Shown piece after piece: positions 1-64,000 of a stretch of DNA of 64,000 nt. Position 1 is the first letter of the stretch, and the number at the start of each line of letters is the position of its first letter. This stretch comes from Yuukianura sp. NJ FZ-2021 (Eukaryota), in contig CM102286.1 of the NCBI GenBank assembly GCA_046563655.1, positions 11,098,001-11,162,000 on the forward strand, written 5' to 3'. Made by a program: the position numbers and the translations under genes. The notes under the pieces are model-generated. The model had not been told where the DNA came from. It searched no databases and worked only from the letters and a program-made list of their open reading frames with translations.

Positions 1-836
1 GCTGACTTTCCGCGTGTGTGGGGGAGGATTGGTGTGGAATGACATTGGACCATTTGCCATTTCTATATTCACACATGGGGGGGGGGTTTAAGGTAATAGG
101 GCAGGTTGTGTACCTAGGTCGGGGATGAAATTAACGTCGAACAGAACGAAGGGAGAAAATATTCTGAGTGGTGAGGGGGGGGAGGCTTGTGTATAAACTA
201 GCTTGGGTGAGTGTTGGTGTCGAATCCATTCTAGAAAAGTGTGCGGCGCAGGGTGGAGGGGATTCCGGGAGAAATGTGAAGCAATAATGGCCCTTAGTCC
301 GTTTTTCTGCAGTTCCTCTTCATTCATTCTTCTCAATAGAGCCCTTCGGGAACGGAGCCTGTCCTTTTCCCTTCGTGCTGAAAACTAAGTTAGACAACAG
401 GGAAAGGCGGCCTCCGAACCCTTCGAATCCCCCATTCCCTTTATTCCTAAAGTATTGTGATAGAATTGAGCCACCTAGTACAATAAGGACGGCCGTCGGA
501 TAACAGAATGAAAGTGGAATCTGGGCACAAATCTGTACCAGAAAACGAAACGCCACGGATTTGGAAACTGGAAAGTGGGAATGGCGGCAAAGCAAAACAA
601 TCCATCTTTGCGCTTTCAATAAAATTAAGCTAAAAATGATACAGGCGTAGGTTTTCGTCCAAAGCATCCCGCCTATTAAAGTGTGGGGGGTCCGGAGGGA
701 CCCTGAACGAGAGGGATCCAGAGGCACCACTGAACACAATATAGTACGAATTCCCTTTTACATTTTCATATTTCAGTTTCGAATCCTTCATAAACTGGCT
801 CAGTTGTGTTCGCGATTCCGAAGAGATAACATCAAC

Positions 837-1259
837 ATGGGAGGTATTAATCAATTATACATCGACTATGTCATTCCTATTTCTCCCAGAACCGAAAAAG
901 AAACAAAAAAGCTGAGCTTTGTTCGTGGTAAAAATGGGAAACTTTCATGCCCTTATTGCCCAAAAGAGTTTGCCCGGAAAGACACCGTAAAGCGGCATGT
1001 TATTAACTTCCATTCACCACAAGTCGGAGGTGGAAAAACGGAAAACACGGAAAGCATGGAAGAAAGTCCATCTTCTCAAAGTGAAAGTAGCCTAGCTTCC
1101 GAAGAAAACAACGATTCGGAGGACGACCTGGAGAACGATTCGGAGATTTCTGCGGAAACAATTAAGCTCATTTTACACCTACTTAAGAATGCTCAAGCCG
1201 GAACTCAAAGATTAACAAAAAAACTTCTATACCAAGTAATAACGGATGCTGACCCTTAA
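837..1259 (+). CDS. Small C2H2 zinc-finger protein with acidic/Ser-rich tail
   Basis: First in-frame ATG of ORF 681-1259 is at 837. Motif CPYC-x12-H-x4-H (CPYCPKEFARKDTVKRHVINFH) is followed by an E/D/S-rich stretch. Confidence 0.65.
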   Translation: MGGINQLYIDYVIPISPRTEKETKKLSFVRGKNGKLSCPYCPKEFARKDTVKRHVINFHSPQVGGGKTENTESMEESPSSQSESSLASEENNDSEDDLENDSEISAETIKLILHLLKNAQAGTQRLTKKLLYQVITDADP

Positions 1260-1319
1260 GTGCTTTCTTCGCTGCCCTGTGGAGTTTGCCAACATGGCAC
1301 ATTACATAACATCACGCTC

Positions 1320-1445
1320 CGCTCCACCGCGCCTGATTCCGCTCTACCCCACCTCACCCCACCCCACCCCACCCCACCTCATCCCGCCCCTCCCCACCTC
1401 ACTCCACCACCCGACCTCACCCCGCCACACCCCGCCTGACCACAT
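1320..1445 (+). repeat. C-rich degenerate (CCCCA/CCTCA)n simple repeat
   Basis: Runs of cacccc/cacctc pentamer-like units. Confidence 0.7.
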
Positions 1446-1956
1446 TCGGTCCCAGCGCAGTAGAAATCAGGAAAACTAAAAAGAATGTAACATAACAATG
1501 GAAACTTTAAATTCGCCACTGACTGAGTGAGTCGTCTTCGGTCTGTACTATCACACAGATCGATACTAAAAGCAGTGGAAAAATAACTATTAAACCAGGC
1601 ACATTTCCAATTTTCAGTTCATTTGCAATCAAAGGTTTGACCCAAACACTTTGATTACTCTATTTGACTTGAAGAGTGCGAGTTTCTCCGCCAGACACGA
1701 TTAGACACAAACAATTGCGTCCTTGTTGAAAGCCAATACTCTAATTGAATTGTTGGACAACCGAGATCTACGGCGTCAAATCCCTTCCAGGTGGACTTCC
1801 GAACACTCTCGGTGATTCTATTTTAGGAAGTTGGCAGTATTGCAACATTTAATTTTCTTCGTATTAGGAAACTGGTCGACCTTTGTTTTGAACTACTATA
1901 GAAAACTCCACTCATATTTTTAGAAGGTAGAGCTGCTTCAGCCTGGTCCCAACACA

Positions 1957-4900
1957 ATGAACAAGTCAAAGAGAAAGCCAATTCGAAAAAGAAAGGTACG
2001 CCTCTAAGGTATCATTAGCAATTTCCAGAAAACTAAGTTTTCCTGTTTTCTCCCATTTCAGTTCAACTGTATACATTGTACATACGAATGTAGTACAGTC
2101 TATCAATTGGATTGTCACAACGAAACGAGGTAAGTTTACGTTCTCTGTTGCTCTTTTTCTCCAACATCTTAATAATCGGGAAAAATACTTGTTCAATTAG
2201 ACACTACTGTCACAAGTGCGGTGCAGTTGTAAATTCACTCCCTGCCCACGATCCCCAATGCGTCCAAGTTGGCGGCGCCAACCCGGCAGGAAATGATCTG
2301 GGTCCGCCAAACATTGACGAGAGTGTATTCAAGCAAGTGGAAACTACTCACCGAGGAGAGCTGGTCTCCTTTATTTTCAAACCCCTGCAAGACTTTAGAA
2401 TGCTTGCAGATTTGATCGAATCTGTCGAAAGTCCTCTTAAGTTATTGGTTGAGCAAAATTTGGCTCACTATGGAGCAATCAGAATCAAGTTGGTTCTGCT
2501 GCTCACTCTAGTTCAAAGTGGAACGCGTGAAAAACGACAAGACGTTCCTACTAGTAGCACTTGGGTTTCTGTTGGCCATAAGTCATTTATAGAAAATTCT
2601 CTAATAACCTGTATTTCGTTTATTATTACAAATTTAAACTTCATGTGCCAGACCAAGTCGGACATGGCCGTAGATAGAATAGACACACATTACGTGTTAA
2701 TAGGGAATTATGTGGTCCCCAAAGGAAGAGGCTGTAACAGTAAGCTGCCGGTCCGATTGAAAAACAAGAGAGGGCTTTTGAACCCAGAAGGGCCTCCGTC
2801 TCTTTGTTTTCACATGTGCATAATGATGAGCCAGTACAGGTACAAGATTCTGGCATTACAAATTGGAAAAGAACGGTTTGCATTCAAAACAAATCAAAAA
2901 CCGTTGAAACGCAAAGAACAGGAACAGTGGAAAAGGCGGCAAATGGTAAAGTTCAAAAACTACAAACAATACTTTCACCCACAGAGGATTAATTTTACGG
3001 AAATTAACAAGGATGGAAAAGGGGTTAGTCTGCTTGACCTGGACTTGTTTGAAAAAAATAATCCAGAATTTTCTGTAACAGTTTATGCCTTAGGGCCGCA
3101 TAAAAAAGTTCAAATTATCAGATATGCGCAAGCTCAAAAGTCCAGGCACGTAAATTTGCTTTATTTTGAAAATGAACCGGGTTATGGACACTTCGTTTTG
3201 ATTGAAAATATGAGAAAGTTTCGTTCTGAATACAAAAGCAAATGCTTTTGTGGCATCTGTGGAAAGGGATTCATAAGTACCAAAGCACTGGGAAAACACA
3301 ATTGTCTTCTCAGTAGTGCGTGCAGACTAAAATCTACAGCAGCTAAATTCTATAAATTCGATAAGCCAGAATACACTCTTAGACAGTCACACTTGATTTA
3401 CTTTTCTCTTCAAAAAATTTCCGTTACAAGGCAAAGACCCGAAGGATGGGTTACAAAGCAAGTAGTAGTGGGGTACAACATCCTTCTACTTTCACCGGAA
3501 GGAGTTAGCGAAGTGTGTCACTACTATGGGAAAAAGGCAATGAGCCACTTTCTTGACGCGGCACTTTGCATTACTGAAAAGTATTTGAAACTTTTAAGAG
3601 CCACAAATAACCATGTAGAAATGACCGAAAAGGAATGTGAAATTTTAAATTCCGCCTCAAAATGTACATTTTGCAATTGCCATTTTGACGCGTTTGATGT
3701 AAACCATAGGCGCGTAGTTCATCACCATCACTACTATGGAAACGCCGCCATTTTGCCAACAAAATCCTCCCAGCAAATGATTTTGTGCTCAGACTGCAAC
3801 TTGCGCGCACGTCAACCGCGCACTCTAACGGCCGTATTCTTTTCCGACGGTCCACATGATTTTCATCTAATCGCAAAAGGTATTGACTGCAGCAACGCTG
3901 CAGAGACGGTTACTCCGCTTTCTAGAAAAGGGGGCCAAATGGTTGGACTAATTCTAAATAAAATTTTGAGAATTGTAAATTTTGCAAATTTTCGAATGGA
4001 CGGATCCATATGGGACTTAGTGAGTGAAATGATGGAAGCCGGCCAACCGTTTCCTTGTCTTGACACGGAACTGAATGTCAAAAAATGTCCGGAAATGCTG
4101 GAGCTCTTCAGCGTAACACAATTTCCTTTAGTAGCAGTTGCAAATACATCAGAATTTTTTGGAATTTTGAGAGGAGATTTCAACGAAATGCAAATCGGAG
4201 AAAAGGATAGGGATTTGGCTTTGAGAATTTGTGAGAAATTTAAAATTTCCACGTTTGAGCAGTACTTTTCACAGAGCAATTTAATTCGCACACTAATTTT
4301 GGCTGATTTGTTTGAAAATTTCCGCACAATGTCCATGCAATATTATAGTCTCGACCCGAGTCATGTGTATACAGGTGGTAGGTATACACTGGATGCTGCA
4401 TTCTTTTATGACCGTGCCGAAGTGGAATTAGTCACAGACAAGCGTTTAGTGGACATTGTGGAAAGAGGACTCAGAGGGGGTGTTGTCCTTCTTTCTGAAT
4501 TTTTTGTAAAGGCAAACACAAAAAGATATGGACATTATGATCCATCCATTCCCACTACCAACATTTTGTCAATGGACTTGAATGGACAATATGCGCATGC
4601 GCTTTGTAAACAATTGCCAATGTCAGATTACCAGTTTCTTGATCAATCGGAGATTGACCGGCTGAATCTAATGGACCTCGCCACGGATGGCGAATACTCA
4701 TACCTTTTAGATGTGCACCTTCATATACCAGACCACCTCCATTTTTATTTACAGTCATATCCGCCAGTATGCGAAAAGAGGGCGGTAGATGTTGGTATGC
4801 TTTCCAGCGTCCAAATTGAAACCATGAATAGGCTTAGTTCTAGCGTCAGACTACAGGAGGAACGGCTAATGTCTACACTGTTTGATAAGACGTCCAATAT

Positions 4901-5855
4901 CCACCACGTTAAAAACATTCAATTTTTCCTGACGCTTGGCATTGAAATTAAAAAGATTCACTCAGTGGTAAAGTATAGACAGGCATTTCTTTTCAAAAAG
5001 TATGTCATGTTCAACACTGAAAAACGAATTTCGGCGCAAAACAAACTAGTCGACCAATTCCACAAAAATTACAACAACTTTCTAACCGGGAGACTTAGCC
5101 TTTCTCCAAACCAATACTCTACCAACAAATATTGCAAATCTGCACCACAGTTTCGAAAATATTTTGCGCAACACAATTTTGAAGACGTCTCTAGAATTTC
5201 AAAGCGAACCAGTCTGTTTCAGTTTAAAAAGTCTGAAAGTACCAATGTAAACTTTCGACTAATTTCCCTGGTAGTCTATGAACTCGCAAAATTGGAATTG
5301 CTGCAAAAAATTTACTATGAATTTATGCCTTTGTTTTCCCCCCTTTGCTTCCGTGTCATTCACTCTCATACCGACTCACTAATCGCAGCAGTGACATGCA
5401 GCGATGAAGACTATATTTTCAAATTAACTGCAATTTTGCATTTGCTCGATACTTCCAAGTTGGAAAAGTCGCACCCACTTTATTCGCCTCTAAACGCGCG
5501 AAAACTTGGTAAAATGAAAATTCAAGATGGAATTGTTGAATTTTGTGGTTTAAGAGCGAGCTGTTACAGCCTCTTGTTTCAAAATGATGTGGAAATTTGT
5601 AAAACTTCAGGGATTCCACACAGTGGAAACGAGCAATATTTAAAACATCAAAATTTTGTAAATACTTACAGTTCTGGTCTTTTAGCTGGGAATGTTGTCA
5701 TTCCGTGTGTAAAAATTGTAAATGGAAATGTAATGGAAGTAAGACTAACTAGACAGGGTCTACATAACCTTGATGTTTCTCGTTTTCGGATAGGAAATTA
5801 CTCCTTACCATTTGGCCATTGTTTGCTTAAAAATTATTCAACCCCTTCTTTGTAA
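1957..5855 (+). CDS. Protein-primed family B DNA polymerase (Polinton/adintovirus-like), 3 exons: 1957-1995, 2062-2129, 2201-5855 (~1253 aa)
   Basis: Motifs: LADLFENFR, SLDPSH, ERGLRGG, motif A SMDLNGQY, YPP..EK, motif C HTDS, LGKMK, EFCGLR, C-terminal LPFGH. Zn ribbons CGIC and an endonuclease-VII-like CTFC...HHHYYG...CSDCN. Two GT-AG introns join in frame and assemble a C2H2 finger. AATAAA at 5901. Confidence 0.88.
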
Positions 5856-8040
5856 AAACCCCACTGAAATTTTCACAATTTGTAAACATTTTGTACATTG
5901 AATAAATATATTTTTTTAGTTGAAGTCAAAGGTCAAAGTGCCAAGAAATCCGAATTGTATTTACTACATTTCGTAAATAATAATTTGTATTTAATTTATT
6001 ATTCTACACGGTGTAGGATAAAGAATTTGTTTATGAACTTTGTCAAAGGTCAAGTGGTGGCTGCTTATACATTGGTATCTACTGGCAACCCATAGAAAAA
6101 TCAATATCCGTGACGCCACCAAGTGGAATACACTGAGTTTTTTAGGATTCCTAGTGTGGAGGTGGGTGGAGGGTGATGTATTAGGCGATGGTTGGTCAGC
6201 GGTGGGGGGGGGGGCTAGGTCATTAGTACCATGGGAGTTGGGAGTTCCACCTAATTAATTAATCAGCCTAACCTAACCCTGCACTCATAACCGCCATGTC
6301 AATCATATTTTGAACACAATCCCAGCGGATCAAATGAACATACAGCACGGCTTAATTCATACAATCTGCACAGTTAACCTCCCCACCCCTTACCGCAATT
6401 GCCCACCCCATACTGGCCAATAAGACTTCATAAAAATTTGATTGACAGGTGAAGAATTAATTACGTGGTTGGTTGAAATTTATTAATTAATTGATTAGTT
6501 GGACCTGTATTACCAGAGTAGGTTTATGACGTGGAGAAGGGGGGGGGGATTAGTAGGGACAGGGGGTAATTGGTGGGGGCATATTTGAGGGAGTTAATTG
6601 GGGGTTAATATGGGTTTGGGGTTGGGGTAATGAATTGGCAATTATGCAAATCTGTCAGGCTGATTGACATAATGATTGACAGATAATCAATATTTTTTGA
6701 AGATTCTGTACACATTGTACCTACTTGTGGCATTTTACCGGCGGGAAAGCTTTGGCCTTACAAGGGCCGTACGCGACAATGTCAGGGAAATGATGGGAAG
6801 GATGCCTGGGTGATGTTTGGCCCAGCTTAGGTGCGCATCGCTGGGGAATGCTTGAGAGGGCGGCCAACCCCAGATGTTGGCCAAACACGTAAAAATGGCA
6901 CGGGCCAGTCTCGTCCCTCACATTTAGTGTTTATTGGGCAAGCAAATCCGGCCAATCCACCGCGAAACGTTACCGTTCGAGCGATGTCCGCCACACAACT
7001 CAAAGTTCGCTGGATCGTAAGTCACAATTTTCAATGTTACCATTACATTATGCATTTTATGTTTTATATATTTACTTTACGTGTTTGTACCATTCATTTA
7101 TGCATTTATACAGTACAAACATGTATTTACACCAAACGCGGATGTGTTTACATGAAATATTTATGTTCTTATGAATTTTTAGCCACTACAACAGTCGGAA
7201 TGGTACGGTAACGCCCGCGGGTACAACATTTCGTTTCGTCCGTCCGGAACGGCACGTTGGCCAAATCATCATTCATCATTGGCCAATTGGAGGAGTTTAC
7301 GCAATATGAAGTCGTAATGTCGGCTATCAACGATGTCGGTTCATCTGTACCGTCAGTACCATCTTTGGAACGCACTCGTGAAGCCGGTAACGAACTATCG
7401 CATATTTTCTAACAAACTTTACATTTGGTGTATAAAACGCGTCTTATACATACTTCTATGCGCACTATACACAAATTTCCAAATTTTTTTTAGTTCCGAG
7501 TGCCGGACCGACAGCAGTTGAAGCCAACGCTACTTCGTCAACGACAATCGTCGTCCGGTGGGGATCTGTTCCAGAAGTTCATGCCAACGGAGTCATTGAA
7601 GGATTCAAAATTTATTTTGGCGCCAAAAATGTTCCATTTCGCTACAAACAAATATCGTCTAACCTTACGTTCACAACAACTCTAACCGAACTTAAGAAAT
7701 TCACGCAGTATCACATCCAAGTACTTGCTTACACTCGTGTTGGAGATGGAAGTTTATCTAATCCGCCAGTTCAGATTCAAACTTGGGATGACGTTCCCGG
7801 GCCAGTTTCAAACGTTTCGTTTCCCGACGTTTCCACGACGATGGCAAGAATGATCTGGGACGCTCCAGAAGATCCAAACGGAGTTATTCTTGCATATAAA
7901 ATTACGTATGCCCTTGAGGGATTCACTACTGCCAGCTTTTCAATGGATTTCACGCCTGAGACGCGAACTTTTCGGTAAGAAATTTGAAAAACAACACAAA
8001 GTCTTTATTTGTTAAGGATTTGATAGCAAGACAGGACTTT

Positions 8041-8107
8041 GCCTGGGTAGCTCAATGGTGAGAGCGACTGAACCACAACCGGAAGACTACCCCGGAACGG
8101 TGGGATC
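8041..8107 (+). repeat. tRNA-like (SINE head) fragment in sdk intron
   Basis: GGGTAGCTCAATGGTGAGAGCG is an A-box/D-arm-like sequence; no complete cloverleaf. Confidence 0.4.
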
Positions 8108-9259
8108 AAGGTTCCTTGATAACGAAAAGCTAATTTTGTTTAACTTTTTATTAACAAGTTGAGTACTACCTTCTAAATGTAAATTTTAAATTTAGATTTC
8201 AAAATTTGGTTTTGCAGAGCAACTGATCTTGACCGTGAGAAAAACTACTGGTTTTCAATTTGTGCCAAAACACGTTTGGGGTGGGGCGACGTCGCTAAAC
8301 TTTTGTTTTTCACGACGAATAATCGCGAATTGCCCCAAACGCCGTCAGCTCCACGAATTTCTCCATCGCAAGTCCAGTCACGCCAAATCACGTTTTCCTG
8401 GACGCCAGGACGTGATGGATTCGGGCCAATCAGGTGACTTTGAAATTTTGAAAAGTAACTTTTGAAAAAATTTGAAGTTTCGAAATTTGAAAAATTGCAA
8501 TTCCCACGACTTTCAGATACTACACAATTGAGTACAAAGAGGGAGATGGACATTGGCAGAGAATTGGAGAGCGAGTAACGCCATCTGGAACTTCGTATAC
8601 AGCCAAAAATCTAAAGCCGTACACATCTTACCGGTTTAGGATTCAAGCGACGAACGATATTGGTCCGAGCGGTTTTCCTCCCGAATCCAATGTATCGTGG
8701 ACTCTACCTGCCGGTAAAACACGAAACTGAAAAAATTGATGTGAAAATTTTTCAAAAATTAAAATTTTGCAGTTTTTTTTTTTTTTTTTTGAAAATTTTC
8801 CCATTTTCGGAACTTTTAACAGCACCAAGTGGAGCCGTGGGCGATATTCACGTGATTCCAACCACTACCACAAGCATACGTGTCAACTGGAAACCGTTGC
8901 CACTTGAACGGTGGAACGGCGATGCCGAAACCGGTGGCTACCGGATCGAATACCGGCAGGTACTGGACTACCTCGTGGCGTCTGCGCAGTCATCTCCCAA
9001 TGAAGAAATGTGTGGAACGCAGTCATCTTCTATTGTGCTCAAAGATCTCACGAGAGACAAAAACTATGAAGTGACCGTCGTCGCTTTCAATTCGCGCGGA
9101 GACGGCGAAATTTCACGTCCCGCTACAATTTACGTCGGAGAAGCCGTGCCTACCGGAGAACCACGCGACGTCAAAATTAGTGCCGTCTCGTCCACTGAAA
9201 TTCAAATTCAATGGACCGCTCCGCTTCAAAATGAACAAAATTGAGATTTACTTAGAAAC

Positions 9260-9473
9260 CGGTAGTACTCCAATGCTCCGAATGGATTTCTCCGAAACCA
9301 ATTTTTCCGAAAGGTGCATTGGTTCGAAAGATAAGTTGATCCGAAATTGATTAGGTTACAGATTCTGTACAATGTAAAACTAGCTTTCGCAGCAATTTGC
9401 CGTTCGGAGCAATTCGTTTCGGAGAAATTATTTCGGGGTAATTAATTTATTCGGAGTAATTGCATGGAACCCA
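9260..9473. mobile_element. Degenerate MITE-like insertion at an sdk exon end
   Basis: Repeated TCCGAA/TTCGGA motifs in inverted arrangement; replaces the expected GYK exon end. A related fragment lies at ~14950-15120. Confidence 0.4.
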
Positions 9474-10859
9474 GAAAATAAACACTTCTAATTTTTGCTC
9501 TTTTTTTTTTTAATTTTCGCATGTTTTCAGCTATACTATCAGGCTGACGGCACTGAAGAGGAGGAGCTTGAAGTTGTTCCAGCGTGTTGTACAAAACAAT
9601 CTCTATTTTTCCTAGAAATGTACACATATTACTCTGTGCGCATGGCAGCCTTTAACCCTGCAGGGGACGGGCCCTTCACAGCCCCCTTAGGGGTACGCAC
9701 CCACCAAGGGCCCCCTGGCCCTGTTTTGAACATTTCCTTCCACGATATCACCATGACGGCCCTGCGAGTGACGTGGTTGAAGCCTTCGCGCCCCAATGGC
9801 GAAATCGCTCACTACTTGGTTACATACGAAACGGTTCTGGAGCAAGGGGGCGGAGCTAGTGGAGAAGATCAAGTGATTTCGAAACAAGTACGCCAGAAAG
9901 TGTCTTGTTGCACGCTATTGGTGGAGAATTTGGAAGAGGAGACACGACACAGTTTTTCAGTACGCGCTAAAAACGCGGTTTTGGGAGAAGTCGGCCCGTC
10001 AGAGAGGAAAAACGTGAGTACTGGACCACAGTTTGGCTCACCCAAGACTCCACGTGACTTGAGATTACACAAAATGTATGCAGCAGTGATGCTACAGTGG
10101 GTGAATGACGAAAAGTCAACTATCATTACTACATTGTTACATTTGGTTACTACATTGAAGCAAAACGTGAAGGTAAAATTTTTGAACATTTTCGAAAACA
10201 AAAATTGAAAATTTTCATTTTTCAAAAAAATAATTCTAAAACTTTCTCTGTTTGATAAAAAATTTCTGCTTTCACAGTGACCCATGAGTGGGAATTGAGT
10301 AAGTAAAACTTTCACTTTCTTTTCTACACCTTCTATTTTTCATTTCGTCCGTCCGTCTGTCTGTCTTTCCGCCTGTTGGGCAATTTTTGTTTTGTTTTTT
10401 TTTTTCAAAATTTTTTTTCAAAAATTCAACATTTTTTTCTCTTAGATGAAAATCGATGGACAACTGTCCAGAAGACTGACGATGGACGCCTGTCAAAGTT
10501 CACCGTGTCATTTCAAAATCTTCTTCCCTCTACTGCCTATACTTTCCGACTCATGGCCTATAACCAGTTTGGAATCAGCTACCCATTGGCATCTGACGAC
10601 ATTGTAATTTTTCACCAAATTTTGAATTTTTGGAATTTTTTAAATTTTAATGAAATTTTGAATTTTGCCGGCAAGGTGTTCACCCCGTCCAAACTGTTCT
10701 TGGAATATGTCTCAGAGCAGAGTCCGTTCTACAAACAGACGTGGTTTCTCGTCGTCATAGCTTCCGTATCAGTAACGCTAATCATTGGATTAGTGGCCTA
10801 CCTCTGCGTCAAAACCAAATCCTACAAATATAAACGTGAGTCAAAGATCAACAAAGAGC

Positions 10860-10927
10860 TCCAGAGCTCAAGGGTTAGTGTGCTTCCTGGATTGAAGAGA
10901 TGTGGGTTCGAATCCCATTCGGTTCCT
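10860..10927 (+). repeat. tRNA-derived SINE-like head in sdk intron
   Basis: AGCTCAAGGGTTAG (A-box-like) and GGGTTCGAATCCC (B-box/T-arm). Confidence 0.45.
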
Positions 10928-12624
10928 TATTTTTCTGCACACTGGTTCTTTGTCTCTCAAGCCATATGTGACCCCTGAATGTCAAATTGCGAAGAACGAA
11001 AATTTTTAGTGCCTGAGCAGAACTTAATTTTTGTTTTGTGCAGATGAAGCTGACCGGAGCTTAGAGGAGACGACCAGTATTGAGGAGGGGGCGCTGTACG
11101 GCTCTTCAGTGGAACTTCGGCAGTCACAGAAGAAGATCTCGACGCTCAAAAGGAAAGGCACGGCGGCATCCAAGGCCCCACCAAGACCCACCCCCGGCTC
11201 AGTCACTTACGTATGCAAAATTAATAAATTAATATAATGAATAATAATTAATTAATTATAATATATTTTATTAGACTGATGATGAGTCAGACAAGGCTTA
11301 TGACAACAACCCAGATGAGAGCAGCCTCACTGAAAAACCGTCTGAGATTAGTTCAACGGACTCTCAAGTAAAGGAATGCACAAATAATAGAAAATTAAAA
11401 CACAAATTACAATCTGTCTTTGGCGGGAAAAAGTCTCGCGTTGCCCCTTCTTTCTGCAACTAAAAAAACCTTTGAATTTTGGTGCCTTAAACTTCTCTAA
11501 GCTTCAACCTCCATCTATGGGTGACTTGCTTTTCAAAGTAAACGGAAATTTATCTCTCTACGCATGAGTTTTTTAAACTTTTGCAAATACGCTGCAAAAA
11601 CAAATTGACCACGCATGCTCAAATCTAACTGTATTTTTAAATGTCTTTCAACTTTTGAGCAATTTTTGCCGCTTTTTCTTTTGAAATTCCATCAAATGTT
11701 TCACTCTTCTTTGTTTATATACCAATTTTTGGCTGTTTTTAATAATTTTCCAAAATTTCAGACAAATTTTTGACTTTTTTAACATCACATGGTTGTGTCT
11801 TTTTTGTAGGGTAATGAAACAGAAATGGAGGACGAAGTTGACGGAGTCCCTGAGCCAAATCCGCATTCTTTCGTGAGTCACTACGCAAATGTGAATGACA
11901 CTTTGAAGCAGAGTTGGCAGAAGCAGAAGCCCGTGAGAACTGCTTCTGTCAACTACTCCAGCTACACGGAATCAGAGCCAGAAGCCACTGCCAGTCTCCA
12001 GGGGGGTCAAGGTCGCGTAGTCCTTGAGAACATGGCAAGGTCACGCAAACCCCTCCCGGGCTTCTCATCCTTCATTTGAACTTCCCGCTCCTTTCCAAGT
12101 CTGTGATACTCCCGAAATATCTTCATTAATCAAAAGTGATTAGTAATTTATAATTACAAATCTGCTTATACTTTGCCAGTTTTCAACAAATCACATACAC
12201 TGCATACAGGATTTAAAAATATCACCGAGAGTTCTCTAAAACTATCACATTTATACTGACTAATTTTGAAAATTCTAAAATTTAGATTCAGTTTTGAATT
12301 TTGGAGAAACAGCAGGTTTAACCGATTTCCGATTTAAAATAACAAGGTCTTCATAACTACTGTTTGTTCATTGCTCTTGTGGATTCCATATTCAAAATTT
12401 GAAATTGAAACAATAAAAACACATCCTGGAAATGCTTTTTAGTTTAATTTTTCGTACAACTTCTCAGAAGATTAATTTTTTGAAATAATGTTGCATTTGT
12501 GCCACATTTATTCTCAAAGTGTCTTTGTAGAGAAAGGTTTTACATTCTTGGGTTAAAATTTTAGTTGAAATTCCATTTTGCAGTTCTTTGCTCTGGTTTA
12601 AAGCTATACTCTATACATAAGTAA

Positions 12625-31536: not shown

Positions 31537-32907
31537 GAGGTTGCGCTGCATTACCTATCACCTAAACCGAACGAAATACAGAGCGATTTTTACAAATAAA
31601 TGCAACAATAAAATAAATTAAATAAAATTTACTAAAATCACACATTAATTATAAATTAGGTATAATTTAAAAAAAAACAAAATGGCGGGTGATATAAAAC
31701 AGTTTTTATCGATTTTTTTCACTTCTTTCGTTAAACGTAGTAATAAATACACAAAAACCCCATTGATTAATAATCAATCTCAACTTGATTAAAACAAAAT
31801 GGCGGGTGATATAAAACAGTTTTTATCGGTTTTTTTCACTTCTTTCGTTAAACGTAGTAATAAATACACAAAAACCCCATTGATTAATAATCAATCTCAA
31901 CTTGATTAAAACAAAATGGCGGGTGATATAAAACAGTTTTTATCGATTTTTTTCACTTCTTTCGTTAAACGTAGTAATAAATACACGAAAACCCCATTGA
32001 TTAATAATCAATCTCAACTTGATTAAAACAAAATGGCGGGTGATATAAAACAGTTTTTATCGATTTTTTTCACTTCTTTCGTTAAACGTAGTAATAAATA
32101 CACAAAAACCGCATTAATTAATGAATTAATTAATTAATTAATTAAACCCTTGAGCATCGCCCTACCTTGTTTCCAATAAACCTAGTATAATTAATACATG
32201 AAACCACAAAATAGTTGACAATCGATCTCAAATTCTTCAGCATAAAATAGCGGGTGGTATTAAACAGTATATTTATAATTTTTTTTCACTATGCTCATTA
32301 AACCTGGTAATGAATACATAAGATAAGTATTTATTACTACGTTTAACGAAAGAAGTGAAAAAAATCGATAAAAACTGTTTTATATCACCCGCCATTTTGT
32401 TTTAATCAAGTTGAGATTGATTATTAATCAATGGGGTTTTTGTGTATTTATTACTACGTCTAACGAAAGAAGTGAAAAAAATCGATAAAAACTGTTTTAT
32501 ATCACCCGCCACTTTGTTGTAATCAAGTTGAGATTGATTATTAATCAATGGGGTTTTTGTGTATTTATTACTACGTTTAACGAAAGAAGTGAAAAAAATC
32601 GATAAAAACTGTTTTATATCACCCGCCACTTTGTTTTAATCAAGTTGAGATTGATTATTAATCAATGGGGTTTTTGTGTATTTATTACTACGTTTAACGA
32701 AAGAAGTGAAAAAAATCGATAAAAACTGATTTATATCACCCGCCATTTTGTTTTTTTTTTGAAATTATACCTAATTTATAATTAATGTGTGATTTTAGTA
32801 ACATTTTATTTAATTTATTTTATTGTTGCATTTATTTGTTAAAATCGCTCTGTATTTCGTTAGGTTTAGGTGATAGGTTTAGGTAATAGGTCATGCAGCG
32901 CAACCTC
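31537..32907. mobile_element. Foldback-like element: long inverted arms made of 117-bp tandem repeats
   Basis: Ends GAGGTTGCGCTGCA...TGCAGCGCAACCTC. Units AATGGCGGGTGATATAAAAC start at 31681, 31798, 31915 and 32032, with inverted copies in 32327-32750. No TSD seen. Confidence 0.8.
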
Positions 32908-38296: not shown

Positions 38297-41200
38297 AAAA
38301 AAAAAAAAATCAATTTTGACGACACGCAAAAGTTGCTCCCTGCTTATCCATTTACCGAAATAGAAATTGCGAGTATTATCGAGGTTTTTTGGTATCAAAC
38401 TGTTCCTCAATCTCTCGCGCATCTTTTGACATACTTGTTTGGTCAATTTGTCTCCGGATATCCGTCAACCCGGCCATCTTCATCGTCCAAGTCGTCTCTC
38501 ATCTCTGGACAACTCGAAGGACGTTTTCAAACAAACAACTACTTGTGCTGCTAAGCGTTACCTTGTCAACAAATTATCAAATTCAACTTTAAATCTTGAA
38601 AATTCACGGATTTAGACAACCTTTTCTGCTCTTCATGGCAACTGAACGACAGATGAGATACCTCGGAAGTTGTGAAACAAACATCCAACTCAATTTTCCA
38701 GAAAATTCAACGATCAATTTGATTTGTGATAACACCCTGGACACAACCACGGAGAACCCCGGAATCGGGTCATCATCCGATGACTGCGGATTGGAGTTCA
38801 GTGGTTCATCAACTACATCATCGTCATCTACTACGTCATCCACTGGGTGCTTAAGAAAATCACAAATTTCTAAACTAACTGACGACTGGATCAAGAACAA
38901 CATTCAGGAGGCTTCTGGAGCTTTGATCAAGAAACAAGATCTAAAAGATAAATACCATTCTTTTTGCTCTGATGTGAAGATCAAACCTTTAGCCGACGCG
39001 ACAATTGGATTGAAACTATTAAAAGCTTTTCCAAACATTACCAAAACACGAGCCGGCGGACGCAAACATTCTCAACAATCTTACTTCGACATCACTTGGT
39101 CCGCTCCTTCCAATGAGGATATCTCTACAACTTCTCTTGGGCTAAAGCTTGCTGACTTAAGAAAATCTACGTCCACACTCAAACACATTCCAAAAGGAGC
39201 AAGAAGAACGACCGCCTCTGCCCTGTCCACCATCATCGACCAAGCAATCGAGCACAACTCTACAGATTCTTGGGCAAAGTTATTCTACTTCCCCTACCAA
39301 GTTTTTCCCATCCCGTCAAAAGACGATGCTGTCACAAATCTAACCAAATGGGTGAAGACAAACGCTAGCCGTATCACTTCTGAGGCGCCTGCAAACATCT
39401 CCCATCATCAATTCAACCAATTCTCTCGTGGCCATCATCCGTCCTCACATCACTGTAACTCCTCAAAGGTCATTCAATCTAAACTAGCCGACGGGGATAT
39501 ACGCGGTGCAGTTCGAATCCTGGTCTCCGAAGATTGCATAGCCTCCAAGGACTCTGATACTTTGAACATTCTCCACCAATTGCATCCCGATCATCCACTA
39601 CCAACCTCGTTTCCTGCCGCACCTCCGAGATCTGAGGTTATCTTTGAAAACTGTCACGTCATCAAAGCCATCTCGTCATTCCCAAATGGATCCGCCGGAG
39701 GCCTGGACTCTTTTCGTCCACAGATTCTAAAGGAACTAACTTCAAAGTCCTCAGGCGATGAAGGAGCAGCTCTTCTAGCATCAGTTTCTGGATTGTGTAA
39801 CTTCATTGCAAATGGTTCTCTTCCCGATGAAGTGAGACGAATTTTTTGGTGCAACTCTATTAGCAATCCAAAAGAAGAAAGGAGGCATTCGTCCTATCGC
39901 AATCGGCCTTACTTGGAGACGCCTCGTGTCTAAACTTATCCTATCTCACTCGTTGAATGTCATTACTTCAACCTTAAGCCCGATCCAAGTTGGCGTTGGA
40001 ATCAAGAATGGTGCTGAAGCCGTCGCCCACGCTGCCAGAATCTTCTGTAATGCCAACCATGGTTCTGCCAAGGTTCTACTCAAGATGGACTTTCGCAATG
40101 CCTTCAACTTAATTAGAAGAGACCGTATGCTGGACATTGTGAAGACCATACTTCCAGACTTCTACAAATTCGTCTCTGAAGCTTATTCGCACGACTCAGA
40201 TCTCTACTACGACTCTGCTTGCATCAAATCGAAACTAGGAGTGCAGCAGGGGGATCCCCTTGGTCCTGCTCTTTTCGCTTTAACAATCCACCAGCTGGCC
40301 TCTACTTTAACCACTGATTTCAACATCTGGTATTTGGACGACGCAACGATTGCCGATACTCCGGATGTCGTTCTAGAAAATCTAAAGTACATCCAAAGAG
40401 AAGCCTCTTCGTTTGGACTAGAACTCAACCTAAGGAAATGTGAAGTCATCATCCTAAACGCAGACGCAGATGAATCCCGATCAATCGTCCAATCATTCCA
40501 ATCTGTTTCTCCAGACATCATCTTTCCTGAATCTGATCAAGCTGAACTTCTAGGAGCGCCTCTTTTCAAAGAATCGACTCGTCGGATTCTCAAATGCAAA
40601 ACAGAGTACTTCAAGTCACTCTCATCCAAGTTGTCGGAATTACCAGCCCACATCGCGTTCTACCTGCTTCGAGCTTCAATTTCCACCCCAAGACTTCTAT
40701 ATTTCCTCCGATGTGCTCCTTCATTTTTGGAAACCGATCTTCTCGAAGCATACGACTGTGCGCTACGTGCAGTGATGGAATCAATTCTCAACTCTACTTT
40801 GTCTTCAGACGCTTGGTCTCAGTCAAGTCTTCCGGTGAATTTGGGCGGATTAGGAGTTCGCCACGCTAAGGACTGCGCTACATTTTCGTTTTTGGCATCA
40901 GTCCATAGTTGTGCGGAGCTAATTTCTACATTTCTGCCGTCTTCCCTGTCACCCTTCGACAATTCAATGGATTTGGTTTGTTCAACTGGTCTCAATTGGG
41001 CTTCGTTATTCCACAGGACAAAAAATCTCAAAACCTCTGGGAAATTCAAGTCTTTAAGCAAATTTCTTGTTCCCTAGTTCAGAACTCTTCAACCCTTATC
41101 GACAAAGCAAGACTACTGGCTGCCGCTGCACCACATTCTGGAGATTGGTTACACGCAATTCCCTCCGGACAACTTGGAACTCTACTTTCGGACGAATCTT

Positions 41201-41896
41201 TTAGGATTTCTTGTGCTCTTCGCCTAGGAACTGATATATGCCAACCTCATATCTGCTCGTGCGGTGCTCCGGTGTCAAGTAACGGTCTCCACGGTTTAAG
41301 CTGTAAGCGTAGCGCCGGAAGACACTCGCGTCACAACTCAGTCAACGACATAATCTTCAGAGCATTACAAACCGCTGGATTTCCTTCAATTAAAGAACCT
41401 GTCGGCTGCAGCAGATCCGATGGCAAACGACCAGATGGTGTTACTCTCATTCCTTGGAGCTCAGGACGCTGCCTCTGCTGGGACTTTACCTGCCGTGACA
41501 CTTATGCAAATTCCTACCTTTCGACATCGTCTTCCCGCTATGGTCATGCAGCCGAATTAGCAGAGACACACAAACATCATCTCTATCGTGACCTAGAATC
41601 TCGCTTCGTGGTATCCATCATTGCCGTCGAGACATCAGGTGTATTCGGATCCGAAGGTCTTCGTCTACTAAAACAAATCGGACATCGGCTGTCAGAAACA
41701 TCTGGAGATAAACGAGCCACGACCTTCTTCCTACAACGAATAAGCCTAGCTGTTCAACGCGGAAACTCCTGCTCAATCTTGGGAACCTTACCCTCAGGAA
41801 AAGATCTTTACGAATTATTCATATTATAATCTAATTTAAATCCTACTTCTTTTCTCAACCTGCCTTTGGCAGGTGACTGTGAAATAAAAATTCTAA
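38297..41896 (+). mobile_element. CRE-clade non-LTR retrotransposon (RT + restriction-like endonuclease)
   Basis: RT motifs GGIRPIAIG, QVGVG, DFRNAFN, GVQQGDPLG, WYLDD, LGGLG. RLE motifs CSC..H..C, RHN, RPDG, WDFT, K..Y. Flanked by TTCGAAAAAA direct repeats. Confidence 0.9.
38635..41829 (+). pseudogene. CRE polyprotein (RFX-like wHTH, RT, Zn knuckle, RLE) with two frameshifts (~39845, ~40975)
   Basis: ORFs 38596-39933, 39926-41077 and 40909-41829 are consecutive pieces of one protein. Confidence 0.85.
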
Positions 41897-59393: not shown

Positions 59394-60748
59394 AAAAAAA
59401 ACTGAAGTTTCGATATTACCAGTGTAGCAACCCGGGGAATTACAAATTTAACGTTGATTTGTAAGGTGGGTATCTTTAAAACGAGTAGACTTGTTCCGAG
59501 GTAATTTACTAGCTTAGAAATTAGTAAGGTAAAGATTTTTCCTTCTAAAAGTTTGCTTCAAATTTTTATTATATTTCAAATTTAATTTAATGCTTTAACT
59601 TTAGATTCGGTTCTGCATGTATTGGACTTTTCTCTTTGTAAAGTCAATAAAATTAAAATTATTCAGCAAACGGGTAATTCAGGGCAGGCGAAGGCGATTG
59701 CTTGAAAGGGAAATCGTGTTTTCTTCTTTCTTTTTTTCTCCAGAACTCACTTTCTGTATTGCTGGTTACCCTGAATTTTTAAATTACAAAAAAAAACGTT
59801 TTTGAAATTCGAGTTGAAGGTTAATTTTGAAATTCGAGTTGAAAAGAATGGGTTAAATTAGAATACTTAATAAGAGTCACCCAAACTCAATTTTCACGGA
59901 CAACCCCATCAAAAATTAATGTGCACAAAAAAAATTTTTTTTGGTGTATGAAGATTACTCTAACTAAATTGATATTTAGGATGAATGTAAAAATACATTT
60001 ACATTTAGGATATAAAAACGTTTTGACATACCATGTTTTCAACATCACAACAATTGTAATAAATAATGTTTAATTGTTAACTAGTTATTAAGAAAACGTG
60101 TTTTATAGCATGACGAAGTGTGCAGAGTTTTAGGAAAAAAATGTAGGACATAGGAGTGGAAGAGCTAAAAGAGGTTTCCTATAGGTTTCCAGCAAATTGC
60201 ACCTTCCAAAATTTTGAAAATGAAATGCAGTGACTCAAAATGCATATACAACACGCTTGTGTAAAATCATATGTGAATAAGGAATCCAAACTTAAAATCA
60301 TAATTTCAGAAAAGCCTCGACGACGCTGTTCCAGGACGAAGAAAAATTGTTAAAGTTTGAAATTTGCTTGTACAGTGACGGCGTCATTCGTCATGCATCA
60401 CTCAAGTTGCCTGTTACATACACGCTGGACTGCAAAATTAACAAAACGAGTTTTTGCATTTGCAAGTTTTCCTTGTTTCAGTTCCTTGCAGTCGCCGTTT
60501 CTGTTTTTGTATCACTCTGCCTCCAAATCGATAGTTCATCCCGTTTGTCAGGAAACAACGGTAACCCAGTGTTTTTCTGCTCCAAAAAAATTTAACCGAA
60601 GAACCAGAAATTCGGATCGAATCGACCTTGCGTTAATCAACTTTAATCAACAAGGTAATACATTTTCGGTTTTTTTCAGCCTATTCACTTCAAAGCAATT
60701 TACGTCATGTTAATCACGTTTTCTTAAAACTTTTTAGATTGTCCAAGT

Positions 60749-61823
60749 ATGTCAGACAAGAAAGGTGGAATTTCGAACTGGGCCAATGAAAATGGAGAGT
60801 TCGTTCAAAAAGTTTCGCAGTTTCGGAACAAAATTTCCGCGAACGGTCCTTTCCCACCAGAATCCGGTCGTTACCACCTCTACATTAGCCTTGCTTGTCC
60901 ATGGGCTCACCGAACTTTGATAGCTCGACAACTGAAAGGACTCGAAGAGGTCATAACCCTATCTGTCGTGCATTATCTTATGGGAGAAAACGGATGGGAA
61001 TTTCGATCAGCTGATGAAGTTCCAGGATGTATTCCTGACAGCGTCACGAACGCCAAATTTCTCAGAGAAATCTACCTTCAATGTGAGGTTAGAAATGCAT
61101 CAAACTATTCTTTGTTTGGAATTTTTTAATGTATTTTTTAAATAGCCAAAGTATGACGGACACTTTACCGTTCCAGTTCTCTACGATAAGAAAACAAAGC
61201 AAATTGTAAACAACGAAAGTGCAGAAATTCTGCTAATGTTCAATTCTGAATTCAATGCTTTTGCCAAGAAACCAAAACTGGATCTGTACCCGATCTCACT
61301 TCGTTCAAGAATTGACGAACTGAATGAAATCGTCTACAATGGAATTAACAATGGCGTTTACCGCGCCGGATTAGCCACTGCGCAGGGTGCTTATGAGGAC
61401 GCCGCAAAGTTAGTTCATCGAACACTGTTGGACATGGACAAAATTTTGGGTGAAAACGAATTCATTTGCGGCGGCGTCCTGACCGAAACGGACATTCGAC
61501 TTTTTACGTCCGTCATCCGATACGACACAGTGTACTATGGTAAACTTTTAGCGTTTATGGTAGTCTTAATTTTATGGTAGTCTAATATTGTAAGTCTTCT
61601 ATAACACTAATTTTGTGATGCAACCTGTGTAGGACACTTCAAATGTAACCTAACCTCCGTCCGCGAACTTCCGAACATCAATCGATGGATGTTTTCCATT
61701 TTAAAGCTTCCCGGGGTCAAGGACACTGTCAACATGGAACATATCAAGAAGCACTACTACATGTACAAAGAGATAAATCCTACTGGGATTATCCCATTGT
61801 ACAATGGCCCTATGGAAGATTAA
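60749..61823 (+). CDS. Glutathionyl-hydroquinone reductase (Xi-class GST, YqjG/ECM4-like), copy 1, 3 exons
   Basis: GRYHLYISLACPWAHRT, TVPVLYDKK, VNNESAEI, INNGVYRAG, HFKCN, HIKKHYY, NPTGI. Confidence 0.9.
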
Positions 61824-62657
61824 GTTCAATTGGATTGCTAATTATGAATAATTGGTTTTCTGCGGATTGGGTGATAATAAGCCGAACAAATTTTCTTTGA
61901 AAGGCTTAAACCGATCTGCACCTATGTTGTCTCAAGATTCTTGATGTTTTTACCTTTGTCATTGTATTTTCAACGATTTGGTCATTTTTTGGATTTTTAA
62001 CCCTGTCTTGATTGTTAGTAAAAATTCTGGATGGATTTTTACTTTAGTTTTGGTTTATTCAAGTAAAATGGGCAGTGTCAATCAAAAGAGAAATACAGAC
62101 TGTGGTGCAAAATGGATTTTAAAATGCATCATGCAAAATTTCGAAAAAGTAGTGAAAGGACTAAAAGTGTCTAGACAACTCACTTTTAGGTAAAACAGTA
62201 CGTGAATAAAAAGAAATCACTAAGAATTTGACATACCGCAACAAAGGGACAAAAAAAATAATTTTTTTAAAAGTTCACTTGAGATTTGCTTGTCCAGTGA
62301 CGGCGGCGGCGGTATGCATCTTTCAAGTTGCTTATTGTCACTTCCAAACTGGACTGGAAGATTAATAGGACGAGTTTTTGCATTTACAGGTTTTCCTTGT
62401 TTCAGTTCCTGGCAATCGCCGTTTATGTTTTTGTCTCCGTCTGCCTCCAAATCGATAGTCTACCTCACTCGTCAAAAATCAATCGTAACCCTGTATTTTT
62501 CTACTCCAAGATTTTACCGAAGCACCAGAAATACAGATCGAATCAGCGTTGCTTACCAACAAGGTTATACCTACATTTCATTTGTTCACTTTACTTAAAA
62601 TCAAAATTTTCTATCATTTCAATCACGTTTTCTCAAAACGTTATAGATTATCGAAGT

Positions 62658-63720
62658 ATGTCAGAAAAGAAAAGTGGAATTTTGAACTGGGCCAATGAAA
62701 ATGGAGAGTTCGTTCGAAAAGTTTCGCAGTTTCGGAACAAAATTTCGGCGGACGGTCCTTTCCCACCAGAATCCGGTCGTTACCACCTCTACATCAGTCT
62801 TGCTTGTCCATGGGCTCACCGAACGTTGATGGTTCGACAACTGAAAGGACTCGAAGAGGTCATAACTCTATCTGTCGTGCATTACCTTATGGGGGAAAAC
62901 GGATGGGAATTTCGATCAGCTGATGAAGTTCCAGGATGTATTCCGGACAACGTCACGAACGCCAAATTTCTAAGAGAGATCTACTTTCAAAGTGAGGTTG
63001 GAAATGCATCAAACTATTCTTTGTTTGGAATTTTTTTAATGTATTTTTTAAATAGCCAAACTATGACGGACGCTTTACCGTTCCGGTTCTCTACGATAAG
63101 AAAACAAAGCAAATTGTAAACAACGAAAGTGCAGAAATTCTGCGAATGTTCAATTCTGAATTCAATGCGTTTGCCAAGAAACCAAAACTGGATCTGTACC
63201 CGACCTCACTTCGTCAAAGAATTGACGAACTCAATGAAATCATCTACAAAGGAATTAACAATGGCGTCTATCGCGCAGGATTCGCGACTGCGCAAGGTGC
63301 TTATGAAGATGCAGCAAAGTTGGTCCATCAAACACTCTTGGACACGGATAAAAGTTTGGGTGAAAATGAATTCATTTGCGGCGGTGTCCTGACCGAAACG
63401 GATATTCGACTTTTTACGTCCATCATTCGTTACGATGCCGTGTATTACGGTAAGTTTTTGCGTTTTACGTATAGCAGTTTTTAATATTGTTAATTTAGAA
63501 CACTAATTCTGTGATGTAACATTCAGGACACTTCAAATGTAACCTAACCTCCGTCCGCGAACTTCCGAATATCACTCGGTGGATGTTTGCCATTTTAAAG
63601 CTTCCCGGAATCAAGGATACTGTCAACATGGAACATATCAAGAAGCACTACTACATGTCTCATAAAAATATAAATCCTACGGGAATTGTCCCATTGTACA
63701 ATGGCCCTATCGATAATTAA
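62658..63720 (+). CDS. Glutathionyl-hydroquinone reductase (Xi-class GST), copy 2, 3 exons
   Basis: Tandem duplicate with the same motifs and intron positions; retains GRFTVP, EILRM and YYMSH. Confidence 0.92.
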
Positions 63721-64000
63721 ATTTAATCGGATTGTTAATTGTTTTTTGGCTTTGTGTATTAGTATTGTTCATCGCGGCAAATTCAAAGCCTAATAATAGC
63801 TCTCCAAAAATGTGTTTTAAAATTCCCGATTGCGTTCGTTTTTGCGTCATGCGTGCCACCTATGCCTGAAATAAACGTTTGAAAGGAGTTAGCGTCATGT
63901 TTCTTTACCGCTTGCATTGTGCAAGTGCAACTAGCAGTTAACCAAGGAATTTTTCGTGGTTTAGATTCACAGAACAATGACAATAATAATTTTTGAAATC

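Follow-up and report, generated by a model that had tools for sequence, protein, structure and literature searches.

Polymerases of Polintons combine a terminal protein, a vOTU protease, an exonuclease and a polymerase, an architecture described in PMC11161782, from which we take the domain names used here. Mavirus-type virophages (pPolB) and the polinton-like viruses and transpovirons with pPolB-S1H, which has a Tlr1-like helicase, are described as having given up proofreading, and in these accounts the whole exonuclease domain was lost together with the gain of a helicase (PMC11161782; PMC5499653). Here we analyzed a stretch of 64,000 nucleotides from Yuukianura sp. NJ FZ-2021 (GenBank assembly GCA_046563655.1, contig CM102286.1, positions 11,098,001 to 11,162,000 of the forward strand), called the window in what follows, which carries a Polinton-type DNA polymerase gene near its start. 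Its product, the window protein, keeps the exonuclease domain with a confident predicted fold, and the catalytic residues alone are replaced. In the mavirus and polinton-like virus polymerases, by contrast, the domain has been deleted or can no longer be recognized and a helicase has been gained, whereas no helicase is fused to the window protein or seen near its gene. Among open-access papers and bioRxiv preprints, searched without supplements, we found no account of Polinton-type polymerases that form a full-length lineage in which the exonuclease residues are substituted.

Compared with the PolB proteins of Polintons/Mavericks and adintoviruses, the window protein shows the same domain order, the same place of the HNH insert, end-to-end homology, the same N-terminal fold and a phi29-like polymerase part. 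It differs from the Polinton/Maverick enzymes in that it and the clade to which it belongs, termed G1 below, replace the carboxylates of ExoI and ExoIII, the first Asp of the DTD motif, the Lys of the KxY motif and the aromatic residue of motif B. Furthermore, the gene lies outside the reach of Pfam models at E values up to 1, no integrase, capsid or terminal repeat was found nearby, and it probably contains introns. The best solved structural match is phi29 DNA polymerase, with which motifs A, B and C align at an overall identity of about 10-11%, but phi29 polymerase has a full exonuclease site and neither the terminal protein-vOTU fusion nor the HNH insert that the window protein possesses.

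Loss of catalytic residues is also described for inactivated family B domains, i.e., the C-terminal half of Pol epsilon, an archaeal family, a poxvirus virion protein and herpesvirus UL8 (PMC5499653). In these domains the fold was likewise kept under selection after the catalytic residues were lost, but they are without the polymerase carboxylates, whereas the window protein keeps the equivalents of Asp249 and Asp458 of phi29 polymerase. The nearest functional analogy is provided by Pol alpha and Pol zeta, family B enzymes in which the exonuclease fold persists with its catalytic residues lost while polymerisation continues. These are cellular genes, they are not protein-primed and, unlike the window protein, they have an intact DTDS.

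Homology, domain order and predicted fold

An intact gene at this locus encodes a protein-primed family B polymerase of the Polinton/Maverick-adintovirus type that has diverged strongly. The gene occupies positions 2112..5855 of the + strand, where 1247 codons follow one another without a stop (1253 codons at 2094..5855 when counted from stop to stop), in agreement with the stop-free frame of about 1250 residues reported in the first-pass annotation of this DNA. Across the same stretch, the two other + frames contain 84 and 89 stops and the three - frames 56-62, and the runner-up open frame of the 64-kb window has 462 codons. With an off-frame stop frequency of 0.069, the probability of an open run of 1247 codons is about 1e-39. 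The window carries a single copy of the polymerase gene.

Pfam assigned no family to the whole 1247-residue protein (P0001 in our set) at E values up to 1, including PF03175 and PF02945, and when the PDB was searched with the whole sequence, only chance rows came up at E values up to 1. A word-indexed search found 12 relatives with 24-28% identity (best E 1.6e-53), several of which carry PF03175 (DNA_pol_B_2) and PF02945 (Endonuclease_7); two are named from Ixodes scapularis. When residues 49-1247 were used as the query in phmmer, 5546 library proteins matched at E≤1e-3, 772 of them with E≤1e-30. The top match, P0014 (1203 residues), aligned end to end with 32% identity and an E value of 1.3e-147, P0015 was also among the best, and the 150 best matches spanned E values of 1.3e-147 to 1e-47. 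The ESM Atlas returned arthropod-rich PF03175/PF02945 clusters only. A metagenome scan with the window protein gave no match, and a scan with P0167, a relative from a metagenome, recovered only the 1763-nt contig that encodes it. No G1 relative was obtained from IMG/VR in scans with P0014, P0015, P0001 and one alignment, a method that detects near relatives only.

Structure models were generated with AlphaFold2 for residues 400-1247 and, separately, for the N-terminal 399 residues. The first model reached a pLDDT of 88.6 and a pTM of 0.90. When it was searched against PDB structures, phi29 DNA polymerase took the top nine places (E 3e-14 to 1e-11, TM by target 0.62-0.69), and other family B polymerases ranked behind it. 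The N-terminal model (pLDDT 85.6) had no PDB match at E≤1e-3, the weaker rows pointing to little-finger domains of Y-family polymerases. In BFVD, this model matched a C2H2 protein of Drosophila-associated adintovirus 2 (E 5e-21), the PolB of a MELD virus (4.5e-11) and the polymerase of an adintovirus (3e-7), and there was a weak match to the mavirus polymerase (3e-3). Alignments, model and BFVD matches together delimit an N-terminal module of residues ~60-400 (2289..3311, +), which is terminal-protein-like and vOTU-like and keeps Cys232 (nt 2805-2807) and His360 (nt 3189-3191). The architecture is complete, in the order zinc finger, terminal-protein-like part, vOTU-like protease, exonuclease with an Endo VII/HNH insert, and polymerase. 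The presence of relatives with PF03175/PF02945, the homology over the whole length and the phi29-like fold establish the protein as a relative of Polinton-type pPolB, as had been proposed.

Catalytic residues of the window protein and of clade G1

For phi29 polymerase, the exonuclease site is given as Asp12, Glu14, Asp66, Asp169 and Tyr165, and Asp249 and Asp458 are named as the catalytic carboxylates (PMC4974454). Alignment to relatives placed the motif strings of the window protein in the columns of ExoI, ExoII, ExoIII, motif B, motif C and the Endo VII/HNH insert, and all strings quoted in the first-pass annotation are present at the positions it gave. In ExoI (3399..3413; this and all following motifs are on the + strand), YFSLQ (residues 430-434) stands for YxDxE, the Asp being replaced by Ser432 and the Glu by Gln434. 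ExoIII (4263..4289) reads YFSQSNLIR, where SQSNLIR comprises residues 720-726, and has Ser722 for the Tyr and Arg726 for the Asp. The loss of exonuclease catalytic residues claimed earlier is confirmed at these four positions, and carboxylates at shifted positions were looked for: none of the 3 positions on either side of the catalytic columns of ExoI and ExoIII holds an acidic residue. ExoII (3840..3860), which had also been called degenerate, reads FSDGPHD (577-583) and is changed at its Asn (Ser578) and Tyr (His582), but its Asp is kept (Asp583). Overall, the window protein is without three of the four exonuclease carboxylates and without the ExoIII Tyr, and Asp583 of ExoII remains.

The polymerase motifs are altered in part. 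Motif A (4575..4592, DLNGQY) keeps Asp822 and Tyr827. In motif B (5064..5093, KNYNNFLTGR, with KNYNNFLTG at residues 985-993), Lys985, Asn989 and the Gly are kept, whereas the aromatic residue is replaced by Thr992 and a Lys by Arg994. Motif C (5361..5378) reads HSHTDS (1084-1089); its first Asp is replaced by His1086 and its Tyr is lost, whereas Thr1087, Asp1088 and Ser1089 are kept. The KxY motif (5559..5567) reads SCY, with Ser1150 for the Lys and Tyr1152 kept. When a profile built from the relatives was aligned with phi29 polymerase, Asp822 corresponded to Asp249, Tyr827 to Tyr254, Lys985 to Lys383, Thr992 to Tyr390, His1086 to Asp456 and Asp1088 to Asp458. Columns aligned to relatives and to phi29 thus agree with the original description of motifs B and C as altered and of the motif A Asp/Tyr and the last Asp of DTD as retained. 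Both principal polymerase carboxylates are present and, because the two retained Asp residues correspond to the catalytic carboxylates of phi29 polymerase, the polymerase may still work.

The Endo VII/HNH insert (3654..3812, residues ~515-567) has HHHH (537-540, nt 3720-3731) in place of DHCH, which had been read as a sign of a degenerate HNH. That reading fails, since His for the Asp of DHCH occurs in 28 of 134 other relatives, which are canonical in other respects, and is a common variant. Colicin-type HNH nucleases also have a His-His pair at this place. The insert keeps His538, His540, Asn563 and the Cys pairs of the CxxC columns, and the window protein has a 9-residue loop insertion in it, modeled with a pLDDT under 50.

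The same columns were read in 166 aligned proteins, each count taking only the members that cover the column in question. Nine of these proteins, some of them fragments, make up G1 (the window protein, P0014, P0015, P0016, P0018, P0019, P0023, P0031 and P0069), seven make up a second group, G2 (P0030, P0032, P0058, P0059, P0066, P0102 and P0145), and the remaining 150 serve as the reference set. The reference proteins are close to invariant in the exonuclease site, with the ExoI Asp in 130/132, the ExoI Glu in 130/131, the ExoII Asp in 138/139, the ExoIII Tyr in 147/147 and the ExoIII Asp in 148/148. The same holds for their polymerase site, where the motif A Asp is found in 149/150, each Asp of DTD in 140/140, the KxY Lys in 137/139 and the motif B aromatic residue in 145/146. 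None of the covering G1 members has the ExoI Asp (0/5), the ExoI Glu (0/5) or the ExoIII Asp (0/6), and the first Asp of DTD (0/5; the residues found are H, N, H, N and Y), the KxY Lys (0/5) and the motif B aromatic residue (0/6) are missing as well. What G1 retains is equally uniform, i.e., the motif A Asp and Tyr (6/6 each), the motif B Lys, Asn and Gly (6/6 each), the Thr-Asp-Ser of motif C (5/5 for each residue), the two His and the Asn of the HNH insert in every covering member, the vOTU Cys in 3/3 and the vOTU His in 5/5.

The G1 members are only about 30% identical to the window protein, and yet the residues that they have lost and kept are the same. A more closely related subgroup (P0016, P0018, P0069 and P0167) reaches 43-57% identity and, where the fragments cover the sites, has HHHH, the 9-residue HNH loop and the motif A and B variants in common with the window protein. 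Two trees were calculated by quick searches, tree 1 with 51 rows and 927 columns under LG+G4, and tree 2 with 27 rows and 507 polymerase-domain columns under LG+C20 PMSF. In both, G1 forms one side of a branch with an SH-aLRT support of 100, and tree 1 places the window protein next to the fragment P0016 as its partner (support 100). Tree 1 also splits G1, G2, P0017, P0020, P0050 and P0024 from the 34 other rows, 30 of them canonical, with support 99. Because P0017, P0020, P0050 and P0024 retain the exonuclease and DTD residues, the losses are derived inside this wider set. As judged from the alignment and the trees, the losses are a property of an old monophyletic lineage and not the private decay of one copy, and the earlier statement that the gene is maintained rather than decaying at random is consistent with losses common to a group of such low identity.

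The G2 proteins are full-length relatives (1126-1299 residues) that are also without the ExoI and ExoIII residues, and at the place of the first Asp of DTD six of the seven have Asp or Glu and the seventh has Leu. By these residue patterns, the exonuclease residues of G2 would have been lost separately or in part, and exonuclease loss in the wider clade may have happened more than once.

Selection, gene structure and surroundings

The lineage is under purifying selection, which is evident from diverged copies in the same sample, from a metagenome relative and from the identities of the separate domains. We mapped contigs from four DNA runs, all of the same sample, on positions 1-12000 of the window at a likeness of at least 80%. 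Many diverged copies were found over the gene and its flanks, with 177, 167, 290 and 414 contigs of run X1 in the identity bands of 99% and above, 95-99%, 90-95% and below 90%, respectively. The diverged copies are about 84-97% identical, cover the flanks too (at 85-95% identity) and have contig depths 2-4 times that of the exact copy. The gene is not single-copy in the sample, and the description of the enzyme as repurposed goes beyond what these data show. Among the 20 in-frame substitutions listed between copies, with 1638 further ones outside this list, 16 fall at codon position 3 and 14 are synonymous versus 21% expected (p 4e-6). The relative is P0167, which is encoded by metagenome contig L001 and is 54% identical to the window protein. 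Over 551 codons, pN was 0.31 and pS 0.83; pS is saturated, dS according to Nei-Gojobori was not computable, and only pN and pS are used. Neither comparison resembles neutral decay, for which a dN/dS ratio near 1 is expected.

The domain identities add a spatial aspect. In three G1 pairs, the part from ExoII to ExoIII is 23-27% identical versus 32-38% for the polymerase part, whereas four canonical pairs show 43-50% and 41-46%, respectively. For the terminal-protein part, the window protein and P0014 reach 32% identity, versus 13-22% in canonical pairs. Relaxation is thus confined to the exonuclease part, and the priming, protease and polymerase parts are constrained. The core genes of vertebrate Mavericks, including ppolb, are reported to be under strong purifying selection (PMC8097293). 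Because the genes of active Mavericks show it too, purifying selection alone cannot tell a host gene from that of an element.

At the 5' end, the long frame has no in-frame ATG before 2400, well downstream of where the alignment with relatives begins. An ATG at 1957 enters the long frame only via two GT..AG introns, and its unspliced reading hits a stop at codon 17. In the spliced model, putative exon 1 (1957..1995, +) contains the ATG and a basic, nuclear-localisation-like peptide (MNKSKRKPIRKRK), and is followed by putative intron 1 (1996..2061, +; 66 nt, GTACGC...CCCATTTCAG). Putative exon 2 (2062..2129, +) would encode the bulk of a C2H2-type zinc finger (FNCIHCTYECSTVYQLDCHNET), putative intron 2 (2130..2200, +) has 71 nt (GTAAGT...TTCAATTAG), a length that is not a multiple of 3, and contains the stop TAA in its donor site, and the main exon (2201..5855, +) ends with the stop TAA at 5853-5855. 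Translation from ATG 1957 is then in frame and gives 1253 residues with the basic peptide at the start, and the C2H2 pattern is complete only across the exon 2/3 joint. The exon 2 peptide scored at best 39 against the N-termini of relatives, which was matched by 35 of 100 shuffles and is not significant. Two 5' introns are thus likely in the polymerase gene; the first-pass annotation had called it intron-containing, and this stands in so far as the two-intron model is in frame, the introns being read from the sequence only. An AATAAA at 5901..5906 (+), 46 nt past the stop, is a possible polyadenylation signal. The genes of intact vertebrate Mavericks are reported as intronless (PMC8097293), so the probable introns lean towards a host-like state.

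On the flanking frames, Pfam recognized only fn3, zinc finger, reverse transcriptase and similar families; exons with fn3 repeats lie downstream of the polymerase gene at 7436-10978 (+). Upstream, a small frame at 651-1259 (+) encodes one C2H2 finger, behind which come PQVGGG and an acidic tail. A similar finger, with VQVGGA after it, is present at the polymerase N-terminus, where the conserved QVGG lies about 50 residues into the protein, and relatives have Q.GGG-like strings at that place. Compared directly, frame 651-1259 and the polymerase N-terminus gave an E value of 3.3, which is not significant. The Gly-Gly strings could be a cleavage site for the vOTU part. An (ACCCC)n array is present upstream at 1346-1441 and G-rich runs occur downstream at ~6150-6215 on the same strand; the two are roughly inverted to each other, and the repeat search gave no inverted pair for them.

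Further along the window, positions 11200-36800 contain tandem long frames of 420, 391, 278, 318, 359, 425 and 280 residues, mostly on the - strand, in units that are 76-92% identical and without a convincing Pfam family. A cluster of inverted and tandem repeats (97-98%) is located at 31553-32878. The region 38593-41829 (+) is a retroelement with three overlapping frames, in which an RFX-type DNA-binding domain (E 2e-10) and an RVT_1 reverse transcriptase (E 2.5e-18) were found. A 1.5-kb direct duplication (86%) lies at 60357-63740, one copy of which has a weak GST_N_2 match.

Possible functions and implications

In the explanation that we favor, the common ancestor of G1 would have lost the carboxylates of the 3'-5' proofreading site and would also have changed three residues of the polymerase site, namely the first DTD Asp, the KxY Lys and the motif B aromatic residue, with purifying selection acting on the lineage ever since. 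Binding of metal and dNTP would persist via the equivalents of phi29 Asp249, Asp458 and Lys383. The loss of proofreading is almost certain, given the replaced residues and the relaxed exonuclease part. More tentatively, with a probability of about 45%, we propose that the protein is a lower-fidelity, protein-primed replication protein that lacks proofreading and is still catalytic; the chances that it would serve a mobile element or the host are about even. All of G1 retains the two principal carboxylates, the Lys that binds dNTP and the Tyr of the steric gate, which argues for polymerase activity, and so does the retention of the terminal-protein and vOTU parts, which are sensible only for protein priming.

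Several observations weigh against a catalytic polymerase maintained in this way. Loss of the first Asp of DTD, which is found in 140/140 proteins elsewhere, of the KxY Lys (137/139) and of the motif B aromatic residue may abolish polymerisation, and the varying replacement of the first Asp (His, Asn or Tyr) is unlike what is expected of a selected new catalytic residue. The copy-based estimate of selection uses 20 of more than 1600 differences, and 13 of the 20 lie within 4646-4766, perhaps in one contig. Both trees came from quick searches, and the row of the window protein is long (1.6) in tree 2. Not all copies are kept intact, since some are deleted or frameshifted. A joint of 1320 to 2849, present in contigs of 4/4 runs, represents a copy or allele with a 1.5-kb 5' deletion; this sequence is 96-97% alike, has 14 other letters between the joined positions and lacks the promoter region together with the first quarter of the gene. 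In one diverged contig, 1 nt is deleted at 3441, and L001 contains one frameshift near nt 573-620, between ExoII and ExoIII, which reflects a broken copy or an assembly error. Moreover, Pfam found no integrase, capsid, ATPase or protease in the 23 frames of at least 150 residues in the whole window or in the 15 frames of at least 75 residues in 1-12500, where a capsid may escape Pfam and 2 kb upstream of the gene are visible. Terminal inverted repeats around the gene were not found either, as none of the seven inverted pairs in 1-32000 brackets it, a partner beyond the window start being possible. Because neither partner genes nor terminal repeats were found, there is no visible element here for the polymerase to replicate.

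The loss of three invariant or near-invariant polymerase-site residues in all covering G1 members would also be explained if these proteins have given up polymerisation along with proofreading and serve a non-catalytic role, e.g., as a scaffold, as a binder of DNA ends or terminal protein, or as a decoy by which the replication of related Mavericks or adintoviruses is disturbed. Such a pseudo-polymerase, which could be a domesticated host family, is a substantial possibility that we nevertheless rank below an active enzyme. It fits a copy that stands alone beside an fn3-repeat gene with no Polinton partner gene or terminal repeats found, and a gene that has an AATAAA past its stop and probably two spliceosomal introns. 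The genes of intact vertebrate Mavericks are reported to have no introns (PMC8097293). The flanks, duplicated with the gene at 85-95%, would fit segmental or whole-genome duplicates of a host locus, and PMC5499653 describes precedents of inactivated family B polymerases in structural roles. What it leaves unexplained is that G1 has kept the principal catalytic Asp pair, the dNTP-binding Lys and the steric-gate Tyr over ~2 substitutions per site, as well as the vOTU Cys/His and the terminal-protein part, which would be unexpected were priming and catalysis obsolete. Purifying selection is no argument for domestication, being the rule in active Mavericks (PMC8097293). Use by the animal itself, i.e., a host-retained, intron-bearing family derived from a Maverick/adintovirus polymerase and acting, for example, as a decoy against the protein-primed replication of incoming relatives or as a specialised low-fidelity polymerase, would make this the first domesticated protein-primed PolB, a proposal that we regard as rather doubtful.

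The diverged copies in the same sample (~84-97%, at depths 2-4 times that of the exact copy), some of them broken or deleted as in transposon families, could instead indicate the ordinary polymerase of a still-mobile Maverick-like family, in which the odd motifs are the family norm and the other genes lie outside the window or on other copies. Synonymous-biased differences would be expected under descent through active copies as well. We consider this unlikely, in view of the lack of partner genes in 58 kb downstream or 2 kb upstream, the failure to find terminal repeats, the duplication of the flanks along with the gene, the probable introns and the lack of a G1 relative in IMG/VR with four queries, by which near relatives only are detectable. 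Simple neutral decay, with a dead Maverick polymerase copy remaining stop-free by chance, would account for the replacement of catalytic residues in several motifs and for the lack of a Pfam family. It is highly improbable, because it would require 1247 codons with 0 stops, where other frames have 56-89 (chance ~1e-39), and it conflicts with substitutions common to a clade, with a pN of 0.31 versus a saturated pS, with 14 of 20 synonymous differences and with a confidently predicted fold.

G1 differs from the mavirus-type route in being a whole lineage with complete architecture in which only catalytic residues were replaced and which remains under purifying selection, i.e., another route of polymerase remodelling. 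The group offers a natural sequence set for studying the role of the exonuclease fold beyond proofreading in protein-primed polymerases. It likewise provides a natural set for asking if a polymerase can dispense with the first DTD Asp, the KxY Lys and the motif B aromatic residue when the two other carboxylates stay. If the gene is indeed kept by its host, protein-primed polymerases would join the viral genes that have been co-opted by animals.

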